This document shows, in pieces, positions 3,398 through 10,384 of a DNA stretch of 64,000 bases. The position numbers were made by a program, and so were the translations under genes. The notes beneath the pieces were generated by a model that saw only the letters and a program-made list of their open reading frames with translations, was not told the DNA's origin and made no database searches. Position 1 is the stretch's first letter. The number at the start of each line of letters is the position of its first letter. Origin of the DNA: Mobula hypostoma (lineage: Eukaryota); assembly GCF_963921235.1 (NCBI RefSeq), contig NC_086097.1:100938001-101002000 (forward strand), given 5' to 3'.

Positions 3398-3505
3398 TCA
3401 TAAGTCATACTTTATTGATCCCGGGGGAAACTGGTTTTCACTACAGTTGCACCATAAATAATAAATAGTAATAGAACCATAAATAGTTAAATAGTAATAT
3501 GTAAA
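3398..3505 (-). mobile_element. Rex1/Babar-type LINE 3' UTR, split by the LTR element
   Basis: Near-identical to 8959-9060 and 54615-54716; resumes at 7546 after the LTR element. Confidence 0.85.
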
Positions 3506-4137
3506 TGTAAGGGGGTTTTGACTTTTATGTTACAGCGGAGGCTAATTAAAATGGCGTCTTTGTTATGTTAATCTGGGGAATGCGGCTTTGTTGTGTTATT
3601 AACCAATTGGGATAGATGTTATGGTTTTGGTGTATTTGAAAATAATGTATGCGGGGGGTTTGGGGACAGAAGCTGGAAGAGCGAGACAGAGGATGGACGA
3701 GGTGCTGTGATGTCCGCGAACGGGGTCGGACCCCGAGGAAGGCATTCGGCGAGAAGACGGATACGGACTCGTGTGGAGCATCTGGTCGAACACTGTTGGT
3801 GGTCCCAGGTGGCCGGTCAAGGTGGTCCGAGGGTCGCAGGGTGAAGAAGAAGGTCCTTGAGCTCCAACTGTTTGTGCATGAAGAGATTGAACTTTGATAA
3901 GTATGGCGCCTTTTATTTTCCTTTTATATTTATTCTCTACTAATTATATAGTTCCAGTAATATCTATAAACTGTAAATCATTTAATCGTGTCTGGTGTAT
4001 TGTCTGTTATTTGGGCGGGGTGGGGTACATCACACAGCATCCACACAAACAAATTATCCAGTTTGCCGGGGCCGAAGGCTGTTTCCCTGGACGACAGCGA
4101 GCCGAGCGACCCTGAGGGTGGCCGGGGGGGTGCTACA
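3506..4137 (+). repeat. 5' LTR (632 bp)
   Basis: Begins TGTAAG and ends CTACA; direct repeat of 6848-7541; followed by the PBS. Confidence 0.95.
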
Positions 4138-4139
4138 TT

Positions 4140-4844
4140 GTGGGGGCTCGTCCGGGATTGAGTCTGCTGGTATGCTGTGTGGGTGCCCTGTTTAAATCTG
4201 TAATGTGTGTCTCTGTGGGTTATTTGCTGGTAATTGCTGTATGTGTGATGGGTGAGGTCTTTGTTCGAGTTCGGGTTGGCATTGACGAGTTGGAGGTGGC
4301 ACCCAGGGCTGTCCATGCAGTTGGGAGAGAGATGAAAGAGTGGTCTGATTTGGAGGTAGGGACTGTGAATAAATTTTCCAGCTCTGGCAGGCTCCGCCTG
4401 GCGTTTGGGATAGTGTCCACCCCAGGAGGGGCGGAGGCGTGCGAGACGCGGGCGGAGCAGATTTCTCAGTTGTTAGATGAGTGGCAGTGCTCGGTTGAGG
4501 GAGAGTGACAGGGATTGGTTGAAGGTTTGAGTAGGCGGGCTGGTGACGGTGTTAGAGCTGTCAGGTTCACTTACACCGTAGTGACAGCTGTCAGTTATTT
4601 GAAAGAGGGGGGAAAGTTTTCAGTGTGTCTTCCCTGGTGAGGAAGGTGGCTAAATTGCTTGCAGTGCCAGGGGGATCATTTCAGGGGATCAGCCCCTCCT
4701 TCAGTTGTTCAGCTGATCAGAGAGGTGTCGGGAAACTTAGTGGAGGCCCAGTGGGAGAACGGCTCGGAGTCTCTGAGGAAGCACGTTCCCAGCAATGTAC
4801 CGATGAACTTCCAAAAGGAGAAGACCCTATTCCTGAAGGCTTAG
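4140..4844 (+). pseudogene. Abridged PNMA-like Gypsy gag with in-frame stops
   Basis: One frame reads [57 protein letters not shown], resembling PNMA-type Gypsy capsid. TGA stops at 4506-4508 and ~4638. Confidence 0.8.
4141..4158 (+). promoter_or_regulatory. Primer-binding site complementary to the tRNA-Pro 3' end
   Basis: TGGGGGCTCGTCCGGGAT, 3 nt after the LTR end; this is the canonical 18-nt PBS(Pro) sequence. Confidence 0.92.
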
Positions 4845-5640
4845 AGGGACCACGCCCCAGGGTGTCGCTATGGATAGAGGAAAGCGATGCTAAAGCCATC
4901 CTCGACCCCAGGGCACAGGTAAAGTTGTTGTACAGTTCGATTTACAACTGGTGTTTGAAGCATTTATCCTCGACAACTGCAAGGGCACTGGAGACTTTGG
5001 GTACTAGTGGCAGTAGTTATCCAGAAGACGATGATTGGTTAATGATCCTGGAGTTCATGGAGGCATTGTCTGGGCACCCAGCATGTCGAGTTGCTTCTGA
5101 GGACGTGTGTAGCAGCCTTGAGCTGGTACCGAATTTAAACGAGACCCAGCGGTGGTACGGCTTGGGGAAAGTAGCTGAGGGTGAGACCCTCTTAGTAGAT
5201 GCTCCGAACTACCACGAGGGAGGGGAGTTGACCGCTGAAGACTCCTCAGTGAGAGAGAGGTCGCGGCAACTGGACCCTAGTGGCGTGGAAGATGAAGGCA
5301 GCGTGTGTGTGGATTATGCGATGTGGTTTAATGTGCTGCATCTGAGGAGTGGATGTTGGCAGATCCTGAGGAGTGCGGCTGTTGAGCTGAAGATGGCCGT
5401 TACTAGTTCCCTAGGATTCTTCCGATCCGAAAAGATGCCCAAGGGAATATCCGGAGCCCCTGCATCCTTCCCGCGGGGCATGAGGAAGACCATGGGGGAA
5501 GTGAAGGCGTGTAGAGTTTTGACGTATGTGGATGACCGCCTAGAGCTTGGATTCGCCCGGGGGGACTATGAGGCGAGGCGAGTGGCTGAGCCCGGGCGAC
5601 TGAAGCGAAGTGTCAAATGTGGAGGAGTTTTTGGCTGGAG
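4730..5640 (+). pseudogene. Abridged pol remnant (aspartic protease and RT pieces)
   Basis: [18 protein letters not shown] is a degenerate LLDTGSQV protease motif. [27 protein letters not shown]...VLTYVDD matches RT KTAF..MPxG..PATF..YLDD. No RNase H or integrase core is visible. Confidence 0.8.
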
Positions 5641-6345
5641 GACTTTGGTGCAATGTGAGAAAAATGACCCGACATACCAGTTGAACTTCCTGGTGTTGGA
5701 ACAGACGGTGGTGGACCAGGGAATGGAAACCCAGGTCGTCAATCTGAATGAGACACAGGGAGAAGAGGGGATTTGCACCACACTGTGGTCATGTACTGAT
5801 GAATTAATCCAGTGAGAAGAAACAATGACCCGCCTTCGAATGGACCAGCAGAAACTCAAGACGTCGATTCAGAAAAGATTGGAAGACTTACAAGTTGGGG
5901 AAGATCATGGAAGTGTTCTGACTAAGGTCAACAGAAAACCGAGAGCCCAGGGAGGGGAGTTTGACTACACTCCCGAGGAGGTGAAGGAATGGAGGACAGA
6001 TCTCGGAAAAGGGAGGCGGACGCTTGAAAGGAACCTGAAGATGACAATCGTGAGTTTAAATGAAGTGGAAAAACTGAAAGTTGACCTGGAAGACGCCCTC
6101 AGGAAGAAACAACCGGAGGCTGAACATTCTTTAACTGCTGCTTTTCAGGTCGGGGTGGCAGAAGCTGGTTGGGTAACTGCGTCCCAGATTGAGATGGCCC
6201 AGAACCCTGAGTCAGAACTGCGGAGGCTGTGGCGAGAGTTGAAGGAGTCCCTGAAGAAGCTGACGTCTCGACTGCAGGAGGCTGAAGGGGTAGCTCCGGC
6301 TAAATGTTTCAGTTTGGAGAAACTCAAACAGCAGCTACCGATCGA
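5641..6345 (+). pseudogene. Transduced, intronless fragments of a sarcomeric myosin heavy-chain coiled-coil rod (MYH16-like) inside the LTR element
   Basis: In correct order: [135 protein letters not shown]. These parallel recalled myosin II rod motifs (EKNDL, LDDLQAEEDKVN.LTK, EAGGATSAQIEM, KKLAQRLQEAEE, AKCSSLEK). Confidence 0.82.
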
Positions 6346-6834
6346 AGGAATGAGGAAGGATACGGATTCGAAGGATGATGTGCTGCACATGTGGTACATG
6401 CTGCCTTTCGCTAACTTCCCCGTGATTGAGGAAGAGACCTTTGGCCCTTCTCCCACTGAGTCAGGTGTAGTGGGGAGGGCTAGCTGTCGGCAGTCTGAGT
6501 TATGGCAGGATCAGGAAGGAGGAGAGGCGGGGCCCCGGACACGGGACAGGGGGCTCCGAGCTGTAGTGGAGGCCTGAGTGAGAGAGGAGTTGGCAAGCAG
6601 GCCCAAGGTATCCCTAGTAGTGTCTGAGCCTTTTGGGTTTAGGTGAGGGGGTACCGAAGTCTCGGAGGGTTAAGAAGCTCTCAGATAGGTTGGCCTATGT
6701 AGCGCCCGTGGGACAGGAGTAAGGTCCACTGTTTGGGGAGCACTGTCACTGTGTGTATCTGTGTATATGTGTGTTGTGTGTCTGCAGGACTGGTTGGCGA
6801 GTTATTTAGAAGTCATGAGGATATGACTTTATTT

Positions 6835-6847
6835 GGTGGGGGGAGAG
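6835..6847 (+). promoter_or_regulatory. Polypurine tract
   Basis: GGTGGGGGGAGAG immediately before the TG of the 3' LTR. Confidence 0.85.
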
Positions 6848-7541
6848 TGTAAGGGGGTTTCGACTTTTATGTTACTGCGGAGGCTAATTACAATGGCGTC
6901 TTTGTTATGTTAATCTGGGGAATGCGGCTTTGTTGTGTTAAATGCTGAGAAAGTTTGTGCTAGTAGTTTGTTTTGATTTAGAGTGTGATAAGATGGTGCT
7001 ATTAACCAATTGGGATAGTTGTTATGGTTTTGGTGTATTTGAAGATACTGCATGCGCGGGGTTTTGGGGCAGAAGGCGGGAAAGCGAGACAGAGGATGGA
7101 CAAGGTGCTGTGATGTCCGCTAACGGGGTCGGACCCCGAGGAGGGCGTTCGACGAGGAGACGGAGATGGACTCGTGTGGAGCGTCTGGTCGACCACCGTT
7201 GGTGGTCCCAGGCGGCCGGTTGAGGTGGCCCGAGGGGTCACAAGGTGAAGAAGAAGGTCCTTGAGCTCCAACTGTTTGTGCAGGAAGAGATTGAACTTTG
7301 ATAAGTGTGGCGCCTTTTATTTTCCTTTTATATTTATTCTCTATTAATTATATAGTTCCCGTAATATCTATAAACTGTAAATCATTTAATCATATCTGGT
7401 GTATTGTCTGTTATTTGGGCGGGGTGGGGTACATCACACAGCATCCACACAAATGAATTACCCAGTTTGCCGGGGCCGAGGGCTGTTTCCCTAGACGACA
7501 GCGAGCCGAGTGACCCTGAAGGTGGCCGGGGGGGGGCTACA
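6848..7541 (+). repeat. 3' LTR (694 bp)
   Basis: Direct repeat of 3506-4137 plus a ~62-bp segment (~6940-7001) missing from the 5' LTR. Confidence 0.95.
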
Positions 7542-7545
7542 TAAA

Positions 7546-7681
7546 TTATGCCAGTAAATTATAAAATAAGTCCAGGACCAGCCTATTAGCTCAGGGTGTC
7601 TGACCCTCCAAGGGAGGAGTTGTAAAATTTGTTGGCCACAGGCAGGAATGACTTCCTATGACGCTCTGTGTTGCATCTCAG
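7546..7681 (-). mobile_element. Rex1/Babar LINE continuation
   Basis: TTATGCCAG..AAGTCCAGGACCAGCCTATT..GCATCTC matches 9060-9180. Confidence 0.85.
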
Positions 7682-10384
7682 TGCAATGCTACTGAAAATG
7701 TCAAATGTAGAGAATTAGATTCTCTGTTGGAGATAATCACTGTGCCTCACTTCCATTATGTGAACGTTATTTGCTACTTATCAGCCCAATTGTCCAGAGC
7801 TGACTGCATACAGCCATGGGATCCTTCATTGGCTGAAAACTAGTGAATGGAATTGAATACTGTACATTCCTCAGCACAACCACCACAGTTCTAATATTGT
7901 GATTGATGAAGCAGATAAAGATGAGTTTAGGACCTCTTGCAGTGATGTCCTATGGCTGTAACAACTGACTTCCCACAACCACAATTATCTTCCTTTGTAC
8001 AACACCAGCAATTCTGTAAATCAGCGAGTTATTTTGTTATTGTTGGTCTCCCCTCTCGCTGTGCAATACCTCTCTCCCCCTTTACTACAGAGAGATGTCG
8101 AATTGGTCAGGTGAACAATCAAATTTTCTGTACTGCAGATCCTGGTCCCTCCTGTGGGCTTTGGTGTTAAACCATAAGGCCACAGATATAGGAGCAGAAG
8201 TAGGCCATTCGGCCCATAAAGTCTGCTCCACTATTCAATCATGGGCTGATCCAATTCTTTCAGTCATCCCCACTCCCCTGCCTTCTTCCCATACCCTTTG
8301 ATGCCCTGGCTATTCTAGAACCTATCTATCTCTGCCTGAAATGACTTGGCCTCTACAGGCGCTCATGGCAACAAATTCCACAGATTTACCACCCTCTCAC
8401 TAAAGTAATTTCTCCACATCTCTGTTCTAAATGGACGTTCTTCAATCCTGAAATTGTGCCCTCTTGTCCTAGACTCCCCTACCATGGGGAGTTATGTTCT
8501 ATATGTTCTTATGTTTTTATGTTCTATAGCTCCAGAAATGAATACCAACATTGCAATCGCCTTCTTCACCACAGACTCTACCTGCAGGTTTACCTTCAGG
8601 GTATCCTGCACAAGGACTCCCAACTACCTTTGCATCTCTGTATTTTAAATTCCCTTACCCATCTAAGTAATAGTCTGTCTGTTTATTTCTTCCACCAAAG
8701 TGCATGACCATACACTTTCCAACATTGTATTTCGTTTGCCATTTCTTTGCCCATTCCCTTAAACTATCCAAGTCTCTCTGCAAGCTCTCTGTTTCCTCAA
8801 CACCACCCGCTCCTCCACCTATCTTTGTATCATCAGCAAATTTAGCTACAAATTCATTAATCCCATAGTCCAATTCCTTGACATACATTGTAAAAAGCAG
8901 GGGTCCCAACACTGACCTCAGTGGAACCTCAGTGGTAACTGGTAGCCAGCCAGAATAGTCATACTTTATTGATCCCGGGGGAAATTGGTTTTCGTTACAG
9001 TTGCACCATAAATAATAAATAGTAATAAAACCATAAATAGTTAAATAGTAATATGTAAATTATGCCAGGAAATAAGTCCAGGACCAGCCTATTGGGTGGC
9101 TGGCCCTCCAAGGGAGGAGCTGTAAAGTTTGATGGCCACAGGCAGGAATAACTTCCTATGATGCTCTGTGCTGCATCTCGGTGGAGTGAGTCTCTGGCTG
9201 AATGTACTCCTGTGCCCAACCTGTACATTATGTAGTGGACGGGAGACATTGTCCAAGATGGTATGCAACTTGGACAGCATCCTCTTTTCAGACACCACTG
9301 TCAGAGAGTCCAGTTCCATCCCCACAACATCACTGGCCTTACGAATGAGTTTGTTGATTCTGTTGGTGTCTGCAACCCTCAGCCTGCCGCCCCAGCACAC
9401 AACAGCAAACATGATCGCACTGGCCACCACAGACTCGTAGAACATCCTCAGCATCGATCAGCAGATGTTAAAGGACCTCAGTCTCCTCAGGAAATAGAGA
9501 TGGTTCTGACCCTTCTTGTAGACAGCCTCAGTGTTCTTTGTCCAGTCCAGTTTATTGTCAATTTGTATCCCCAGGTATTTGTAATCCTCCACCATGTCCA
9601 CACTGACCCCCTGGATGGAAATAGGGGTCACCGGTACCTTAGCTCTCCTCAGGTCTACCACCAGCTCCTTAGTCTTTTTCACATTAAGCTGCAGATAATT
9701 TTGCTCACACCATGTGACAAAGTTTCCTACCGTAGCCCTGTACTCAGCCTCATCTCCCTTGTTGATGCATCCAACTATGGCAGAGTGATCAGAAAACTTC
9801 TGAAGATGACAAGACTCTGTGCAGTAGTTGAAGTCCGAGGTGTAAATGGTGAAGAGAAAGGGAGACAAGACAGTCCCCTGTGGAGCCCCAGTGCTGCTGA
9901 TCACTCTGTCGACACACAGTGTTGCAAGCACACATACTGTGGTCTGCCAGTCAGGTAATCAAGATTTCATGATACCAGGGAAGCATCCACCTGCATCGCT
10001 GTCAGCTTCTCCCCCAGCAGAGCAGGGCGGATGGTGTTGAACGCACTGGAAAAGTCAAAAAACATGACCCTCACAGTGCTCGCTGGCTTGTCCAGGTGGG
10101 CGTAGACACAGTTCAGCAGGTAGACGATGGCATCCTCAACTCCTAGTCAGGGCTGGTAGGCGAACTGGAGGGGATCTAAGTGTGGCCTGACCATAGGCCA
10201 GAGCAGCTCCAGAACAAGTCTCTCCAGGGTCTTCATGATGTGGGAGGTCAATGCCACCAGTCTGTAGTCATTGAGGCCACTGGGGCGCGGCATCTTCGGC
10301 ACAGGGACGAGGCAGGATGTCTTTCACAGTACAGGAACCCTCCGGAGCCTCAGGCTCAGGTTGAATACATGGCGAAGAACTCCA
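7682..10384 (+). repeat. Local segmental duplication, copy A (copy B 53082-56048)
   Basis: Low-copy flank, CR1 3' end and the same Rex1 insertion junction recur at offset 45400; ORFs 7952/53352 and 8095/53495 are identical. Confidence 0.95.
8171..8958 (-). mobile_element. CR1-type LINE 3' fragment with internal deletion
   Basis: CCATAAGGCCACAGATATAGGAGCAG tail; KFADDTKIGG ORF at 8655-8912. Confidence 0.88.

Follow-up and report, generated by a model that had tools for sequence, protein, structure and literature searches.

A high-copy Ty3/Gypsy long terminal repeat family of rays carrying spliced MYH16-like myosin rod sequence in place of integrase

Captures of host sequence by LTR elements

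Retrocopies of host genes mediated by long terminal repeat (LTR) elements are known from fly, mosquito, zebrafish, chicken and mammals (Tan et al. 2016, Genome Res 26:1663, PMC5131818). In these retrocopies, an intron-free partial host mRNA lies inside a discontinuous LTR element and replaces part of its open reading frame (ORF), and the chimaera, which is often in frame, can be retroposed again as a pseudo-LTR element (PMC5131818). We analysed a comparable locus in a stretch of 64,000 nucleotides (nt) of Mobula hypostoma (assembly GCF_963921235.1, contig NC_086097.1, positions 100,938,001 to 101,002,000 of the forward strand), hereafter called the window and numbered from its first letter. 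Positions 3506-7541 of the window are a non-autonomous Ty3/Gypsy (Metaviridae) LTR element, one copy of a high-copy ray family, and carry pieces of a MYH16-like myosin heavy-chain rod within the remnant of pol. As in the LTR retrocopies, host sequence replaces part of pol, introns are absent as compared with the parental gene, and the chimaera has been re-retroposed. The cases of Tan et al. are young, occur in single or low copy and retain readable microsimilarity at their junctions (PMC5131818). The ray family, in contrast, numbers about 1000 copies, is found in several ray genera and has passed through many deletions; it is also old, differing from the source exons by 8-15% in DNA.

The maize Bs1 element and the rice LTR elements with captured genes are non-autonomous elements of plants with low copy numbers. 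They likewise hold host fragments in place of their own coding sequence (cited in PMC5131818). The ray family differs from them in its vertebrate host, its cargo from a structural muscle gene and its copy number of about 1000. In transducing retroviruses, spliced host sequence replaces replicative genes as an in-frame fusion, the product is defective and helper-dependent, and the viruses are exogenous, with a cargo selected for cell transformation. These, too, hold a captured host mRNA (cited in PMC5131818). The ray family, in contrast, is a germline Ty3/Gypsy retrotransposon, and its rod fragment is without evident activity. LARD and TRIM elements, though stripped of their enzymes, have kept LTRs, primer-binding site (PBS) and polypurine tract and multiply with the help of relatives. 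MaLR elements mobilised by MERVL are similarly non-autonomous LTR derivatives amplified in trans (named in PMC5131818). Unlike the ray family, such trans-mobilised derivatives carry no host coding sequence. A HERV-K element with a captured FAM8A1 retrocopy (Jamain 2001, cited in PMC5131818) provides a vertebrate parallel, and differs from the ray family in being a single untranscribed locus that has not been amplified (cited in PMC5131818).

A literature search that included PMC3597677, with subscription journals and Repbase outside its scope, yielded no description of a myosin-carrying LTR family. RNA-mediated capture as a mechanism is already known; the present case differs in its scale and age, in its occurrence in several ray genera, in its cargo and in its series of deletions. 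We propose, with a probability of about 0.9, that the family arose by RNA-mediated capture of a MYH16-like rod into a Ty3/Gypsy element, followed by amplification and shrinkage.

Myosin rod pieces, their source gene and their place in pol

The frame at 4556-6577 of the window is open save for one stop, at 5813-5815, and contains all five peptide strings that the earlier note, made from the sequence alone, had read as myosin blocks. The myosin insert is sense-oriented and in frame with pol. In the following list of its parts, L063, L064 and L065 are less-deleted relatives, obtained from a genome search with a host MYH exon that found the expected MYH genes and many diverged matches; aa stands for amino acids.

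5720..5812, + strand: myosin piece 1 (MYH16-like aa ~947-976), with a 120-nt in-frame deletion between 5779 and 5780 as compared with the L065-type subfamily
5813..5815, + strand: in-frame stop that arose late in this copy; just 2 of 29 other copies have it
5816..6118, + strand: myosin piece 2 (MYH4 aa 989-1091; MYH16-like aa ~978-1080), spanning an intron position of the host fast-MYH gene
6119..6155, + strand: leftover of a heavily deleted rod stretch, where L064 and L063 hold ~146-163 nt more and ray proteins show intermediates
6156..6250, + strand: myosin piece 3, with the exon-exon junction of the source gene between 6187 and 6188
6254..6340, + strand: myosin piece 4 (MYH16-like aa ~1381-1413), joined to piece 3 by a ~200-codon deletion common to all relatives

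A cluster of host sarcomeric MYH genes was found with a short degenerate pattern at C68:15.31-15.89 Mb, and blocks of the window were aligned with every open piece, in the three forward frames, of one 16-kb gene of this kind (L061, L062). The best matches of blocks 5789-5950, 5951-6118, 6119-6253 and 6254-6361 were colinear exons, at gene nt 4065, 4336, 5162 and 9977, respectively. Their scores were 80, 66, 73 and 67, as compared with 46, 41, 39 and 42 for the runners-up, and 0 of 200 shuffles equalled any of the four. The first two blocks, contiguous in the window, are separated by an intron in the host fast-MYH gene. The remaining block, EKNDPTYQL (~5655), the first of the five in the earlier note, showed no significant match to the host MYH gene, as 28 of 200 shuffles reached its score; it belongs to RNase H, with 48% identity over 27 aa to L079, a long-frame relative described below. 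Four of the five proposed blocks were thus retained as myosin, and one was reassigned.

Protein comparisons agreed with this order. A phmmer search of the PDB with 5816-6574 returned only class II sarcomeric myosins at the top, with Myosin-4 at E 2.9e-5; query residues 1-103 aligned without gaps to Myosin-4 residues 989-1091, and later stretches fell at ~1150-1165 and ~1390-1427. Window positions 5717-6346 matched residues 947-1219 of a shark myosin-16-like protein at E 1.9e-24 (single-sequence search, without composition correction), with piece 4 at ~1381-1413. In L064, which retains more of the rod, one ORF aligned to Myosin-4 at E 8.4e-29 with 199 residues ungapped at 894-1092, and the next ORF matched Pfam Myosin_tail_1 at E 6.4e-10, with 38.0 bits against a cut-off of 38.1. 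The insert of the window has no motor domain and stays below the Myosin_tail_1 gathering score, as a myosin-derived fragment and not a myosin gene.

The source of the insert is a MYH16-like gene now at 14.66 Mb of C68 (G000:C68:14.66 Mb), picked from the diverged MYH loci of the genome search with the host MYH exon. DNA identity to the first and second of two source exons was 92.8% and 90.5% in L063, 90.7% and 90.9% in L064, and 90.0% and 85.3% in L065. The window matched the first exon at 85.0% of 40 nt (6156-6195) and the second at 84.6% of 65 nt (6186-6250). A canonical intron of 2,681 nt parts these two exons in the gene, and they are joined exactly at the splice site in the elements, in the window at 6187/6188. 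Another upstream exon, ~12.4 kb away in the gene, is contiguous in L064. Since the exons are spliced in the elements and split by introns in the gene, the transfer went from gene to element via a spliced RNA, in accordance with the proposal of the earlier note that the rod sequence was spliced.

The same note had found the pieces most like MYH16. Among the 120 matches listed in a protein search with the source exon, 51 were named myosin-16 or myosin-16-like and 12 were named as other myosins. In a panel of full-length MYH proteins, the shark myosin-16-like protein ranked 1st of 73 for L064 and 1st of 72 for the window, and myosin-3, -4, -7-like and -13 ranked 57th-73rd over three queries, with the exception of myosin-3, which was 52nd for ORF2 of L064. 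Since the panel consists of proteins selected for their similarity to the source exon, this ranking is support and not a phylogeny. The motif LKMTI..LNE.E..K.DLE, which had been singled out as MYH16-like, lies inside the alignment to residues 947-1219. Together, name counts, panel ranks and this motif bear out the MYH16 assignment.

The source gene (G000:C68:14643620-14676839; L078, L072, L067, L073) has very long introns, of about 12.4 kb and 2.7 kb, and its exons are only 40-70% identical, exon by exon, to the shark myosin-16-like protein. In another locus, G000:C36:112722834-112724717 (L066), an intron interrupts the EAGG../IEM exon at the same place, where fast MYH genes have none. Since the C36 locus shares this intron place, the genome may hold two MYH16-type genes, one of which is fast-evolving or decaying.

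What the myosin sequence replaced was apparent from relatives with long frames. A genome search with the RNase H-end segment of L064 gave 2395 candidates; among the best 150 of these, open frames of ~900-1450 aa stopped matching near residue 67 of 72, whereas myosin-bearing relatives matched to the end. The long-frame relative L079 has a gag ORF assigned to PNMA by Pfam and a pol with RVT_1 at aa 175-334, RT_RNaseH at 446-550, Integrase_H2C2 at 707-762 and rve at 777-873, and is colinear with the window in LTR, protease, reverse transcriptase (RT), RNase H and tail. The alignment of L064 with L079 runs to nt 5329 of the latter and resumes at nt 6894, with the integrase domains of L079 in between. 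Because the gap in this match spans the integrase, the myosin sequence occupies the former place of the integrase. At first the insert took the place of integrase, equivalent to pol aa ~585-1090 of L079; a later deletion removed RNase H apart from a remnant at 5639-5719. The earlier statement that myosin stands in place of RNase H and integrase is therefore broadly correct and needs only this refinement on the order of the two losses. The capture junctions could be placed only roughly, past the RNase H end motif in L064 and at ~6341 in the window.

Two further features of L079 were observed. A tandem array at 6993-7634, with an 84-nt period, ~7.6 copies and 92-96% identity, follows directly after the stretch homologous to the pol tail of the window. 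The gag ORF at 1499-2608 matches Pfam PNMA at E 5.5e-37; PNMA is a Gypsy-gag-derived family domesticated in mammals, and in the ray element lineage a relative of this gag type therefore lives on.

The myosin likeness might be that of a generic coiled coil in a segment of the element's own. The coiled-coil families that Pfam assigns to the window ORF are only weak (CENPH, E 0.005), and protein identity to well-known MYHs is ~30-35%. Against this stand two exons of a single host gene that match at 85-93% in DNA and are joined exactly at the splice site, the L064 match at E 8.4e-29, the four colinear blocks that are each best across the 16-kb MYH gene, and the integrase that an autonomous relative has where the elements carry myosin. 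The DNA identity, the splice join and the match of L064 to Myosin-4 rule this explanation out, and its residual probability is minute. The ordered alignment beyond coiled-coil likeness that the earlier note had named as its test was found in the four colinear blocks and in the DNA identity.

Non-muscle MYH genes and intron-free fragments were rejected as the source, as they have no DNA similarity to the element and only generic coiled-coil protein similarity. Long, intron-free Myosin_tail_1 matches of non-muscle type with internal stops were observed in the assembly (G000) at C18:48745523-48746731, C50:30689110-30689772, C184:304888-305403 and C157:172388-172903, and more of the same type at C21:138691427-138692201, C12:196941089-196941472 and C12:197103644-197104027 (set labelled L031-L035, L042, L043, L046). 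They are probably processed pseudogenes, some of them duplicated, and share no DNA with the element.

Several results weigh against the capture from a MYH16-like gene or narrow its basis. Pfam gave no Myosin_tail_1 match to the window ORF at E<=1, two word-indexed protein searches with window ORFs gave no long relative, and HMMER of the window ORF against 1.84 billion representatives gave, at E<=0.001, no full-length myosin. For this copy, the evidence depends largely on 105 nt of DNA identity and on the less-deleted relatives. In 33 kb of the locus, no source exons could be found for rod aa ~886-1100 and ~1381-1413, and the loss of the intron in piece 2 was judged against a paralogue only, the host fast-MYH gene. 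Finally, no helper with near-identical LTRs was shown, the LTR of L079 matching at just 80-90% and in short stretches.

The insertion itself would have followed an RNA route, by template switch or read-through, with mobilisation in trans by integrase-bearing relatives. One specific possibility is that an element lying within or next to the MYH16-like gene gave rise to a chimaeric transcript, by read-through or by a fusing deletion, and that the rod was captured in this way, the classical route of retroviral transduction. Such a transcript would give an intron-free insert flanked by element sequence just as template switching does, similarity-independent 3' transduction is named as an alternative in PMC5131818, and the insert is sense-oriented and in frame with pol. 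The present data do not separate this route from template switching; moreover, the insert is internal, has element sequence on both sides and starts mid-rod, and either route needs at least one recombination at the level of reverse transcription. We regard the read-through route as possible, though unlikely.

Element structure, copy number and annotation

The remaining features of the element, all on the + strand, are as follows.

3502..3505, + strand: left target-site duplication (TAAA, 4 bp), with identical 4 bases at 7542-7545; an empty-site paralogue lies at ~8957-9080
3506..4137, + strand: 5' LTR (632 nt, TG..CA); 589 of 631 aligned bases (93.3%) match the 3' LTR
4141..4158, + strand: putative primer-binding site, 3 nt past the 5' LTR, an 18-nt PBS-like stretch identified by reading
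4159..4720, + strand: leader and gag remnant (weak); 4693-4726 aligns with the end of the L079 gag ORF
4721..5062, + strand: protease-region remnant of pol, 50.9% aa identity over 114 aa to L079 2866-3207
5291..5605, + strand: RT remnant including ..YVDD.., with internal deletions, 41.9% over 105 aa to L079 pol aa 205-309, within RVT_1
5639..5719, + strand: RNase H remnant (EKNDPTYQL), 48% over 27 aa to L079 pol aa 482-508, within RT_RNaseH 446-550
6341..6577, + strand: pol C-terminal tail, from downstream of integrase, with the stop at 6575-6577; homologous to the L079 pol tail
6835..6847, + strand: polypurine tract, a purine run adjoining the 3' LTR; 6812-6856 is 86.7% identical to L079 7925-7969
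6848..7541, + strand: 3' LTR (694 nt), from repeat alignment; L027 and L028 likewise end at 7541
7542..7545, + strand: right target-site duplication (TAAA), paired with 3502-3505

The two LTRs are direct repeats that begin with TG and end with CA, and are 93.3% alike with one 61-nt indel. The end of the 3' LTR was reached, at 7489-7554, by a single alignment in 24 of 29 other copies. The putative PBS may fit tRNA-Pro; its complement occurs as an exact match 761 times in the genome, and ARAGORN found no tRNA gene in 4 loci carrying it. Pfam found no gag match in the window to go with the leader and gag remnant, and RVT_1 on the window ORF was weak (E 0.03). The RTs of L063 and L064 matched Ty3 RT (4ol8) best in the PDB, at E 1.3e-13 and 3e-9, with Caulimovirus second and retroviral RTs at E>=0.03. 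The window pol tail at 6326-6466 showed 55% identity over 47 aa to L079 pol aa 1090-1136. The assignment to Gypsy is sound because the RTs of L063 and L064 are closest to Ty3 RT and the remnants in the window are ordered as in L079. Since the window retains protease, RT and RNase H remnants in the order of L079 and has no integrase, the element is non-autonomous.

The 61 nt at 6939-6999 are present in the 3' LTR and absent from the 5' LTR, and the 3' LTRs of other copies align across them. The element is nested in another interspersed repeat, at 3403-3505 and 7542-~7690, and an intact second copy of this host repeat 1.4 kb downstream (8957-9188) displays the empty insertion site. Two more pairs of diverged repeats were noted, 1075-1235/8261-8412 and 1784-1955/8712-8883.

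Copy numbers were obtained as first-look candidate counts, not a census, in the 3.48-Gb assembly. The 705-nt stretch bearing the myosin pieces gave 856 candidates, and all 40 that were scored, the window's own copy among them, matched at full length with 94-100% identity. The longer rod protein of L064 gave 1210 candidates, and most of the best 150 of these covered residues ~19-197 without the 120-nt deletion, which indicates that the L065-type subfamily is abundant too. The family has at least 856-1210 candidate copies, about 1000. When 29 copies were compared, 24 were colinear from ~4141, the edge of the extracted sequence, to the LTR end, and 5 were truncated, deleted or rearranged. All 29 were colinear over 5488-6577, across both myosin junctions, with 93.1-95.6% identity. 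Taken together with the LTRs, the target-site duplication, the PBS-like stretch, the polypurine tract, the Ty3-like RTs and the domain set of L079, these shared junctions and the 856 candidates uphold two earlier proposals, that the locus is a Gypsy LTR element and that the chimaera was propagated as a family; the segment is not confined to one locus.

The HMMER search of the window ORF against 1.84 billion representatives found 18 proteins at E<=0.001, all of 127-403 aa, and the 10 that were identified came from Mobula birostris, Mobula hypostoma, Hypanus sabinus and Hemitrygon akajei. Ray models of 179-403 aa derived from the family are named myosin-16-like, MYH16 or myosin heavy chain striated, cardiac or skeletal-like, one name being "putative uncharacterized protein MYH16". 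These ray proteins share the internal junctions and the pol tail of the family, which points to one ancestral capture that would predate these ray lineages or have spread across them. One gene model of Hypanus sabinus (P0127) carries the name succinate dehydrogenase assembly factor 3 isoform X1; after ~55 N-terminal residues it continues with ~120 residues of the myosin and pol-tail ORF of the element, and represents an exonised copy of the element or else a chimaera made in annotation.

The existence of such models raises the possibility that the segment in the window is a real host gene, either a short myosin-16-like gene or a domesticated element, since public ray proteomes contain the models of 179-403 aa from family copies. 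However, the segment here has an in-frame stop, is flanked by LTRs and a target duplication, lacks a motor domain and is one of about 1000 copies with 93-95% identity and scattered private stops and frameshifts. We consider a host gene at this locus very improbable.

Deletion series, open frame and origin of the family

All three less-deleted relatives hold extra sequence within the myosin part. L065 is 82-90% identical to the window element over blast pieces and 89.8% over the aligned internal region, and its main difference from the window is the single 120-nt deletion at 5779/5780. L063 and L064 show 68-88% DNA identity to the window element (76-80% is also given for L064). As compared with L064, the window has 19 gaps of at least 6 nt, 10 of which are multiples of 3, including those of 159, 60, 78, 117, 120 and 105 nt. 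The gaps relative to L064 and L065 support the cumulative deletion suggested before these relatives were compared. Contigs of other sequencing runs have loose ends at 5779/5780, 6109 and 6287, consistent with longer forms, and family contigs are present in runs with four organism labels, which may not mean different species. Contigs from runs that may or may not be of RNA cover the internal region, which is no proof of transcription.

The terminal stop at 6575 is present in 29 of 29 copies, and the other 51 stops are internal and scattered, none being found in more than 6 of the 29. This distribution implies that the founder of the subfamily had a frame of at least 673 codons. Copies of the same subfamily have a mean of 1.8 internal stops at ~3.5% decay (51 stops in 29 copies). 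The Nei-Gojobori ratio of nonsynonymous to synonymous rates (dN/dS) for the window against L065, L064 and L063 was 0.57-0.84 in the pol and myosin parts, as compared with 0.69 pooled within the subfamily; since the ratio between subfamilies is no lower than this baseline, there is no sign of amino-acid constraint. In a rough count, ~2.5% of substitutions in decayed copies make stops, from which ~4 stops would be expected for the 8-10% divergence of the active lineage, and the founder has 0. The deficit is no more than suggestive, as the estimate depends on how far L064 itself has decayed.

One explanation for these data is that the chimaeric ORF was selected to remain translatable, with the coiled coil serving the element by multimerising or associating with particles, or with the transcripts feeding small RNAs against the host MYH16-like gene. 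The founder frame of at least 673 codons, the stops fewer than the ~4 expected by the rough count, the many large deletions in multiples of 3 (159, 60, 78, 117, 120 and 105 nt) and the open frames of more than 700 aa in some L065-type copies are in accordance with it. On the other hand, dN/dS of 0.57-0.84 stands against a baseline of 0.69, just 10 of the 19 gaps relative to L064 are divisible by 3, no start codon is present close to where the long frame begins, and protease, RT and RNase H have lost their catalytic parts. We therefore think selection on the ORF improbable. A fuller form of the idea is slightly more doubtful still, namely that the active lineage kept the pol-myosin frame open through more than 12 deletions and ~10% change, with the coiled coil aiding self-association or entry into helper particles, or with the ~1000 copies acting as a source of small RNAs bearing on the MYH16-like gene. 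We prefer the alternative that the myosin piece is most likely a passenger without motor or filament function.

For the capture with subsequent amplification and shrinkage, we envisage the following course. A spliced MYH16-like transcript would have been copied into an ancestral element during reverse transcription, and the insert took the place of the integrase part of pol, beginning shortly past RNase H and reaching to the pol tail. With its LTRs, putative PBS and polypurine tract retained, the chimaera would have been multiplied by proteins of related autonomous elements. Successive internal deletions, mostly in frame, then cost it about half of the captured rod and the greater part of gag, protease, RT and RNase H, the end product being the short form with four rod pieces at 5720-6340.

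Described animal captures are few and mostly single copy; here a fragment of a structural gene has been amplified to about 1000 copies and persists in several ray genera. With its deletion intermediates and identifiable source gene, the family is a natural record of a chimaeric LTR element shrinking while mobile. It also explains many small myosin-like gene models in ray genomes. The labels on family copies, one of which is fused to an SDHAF3 model, can mislead counts of myosin gene families and orthology in cartilaginous fishes.

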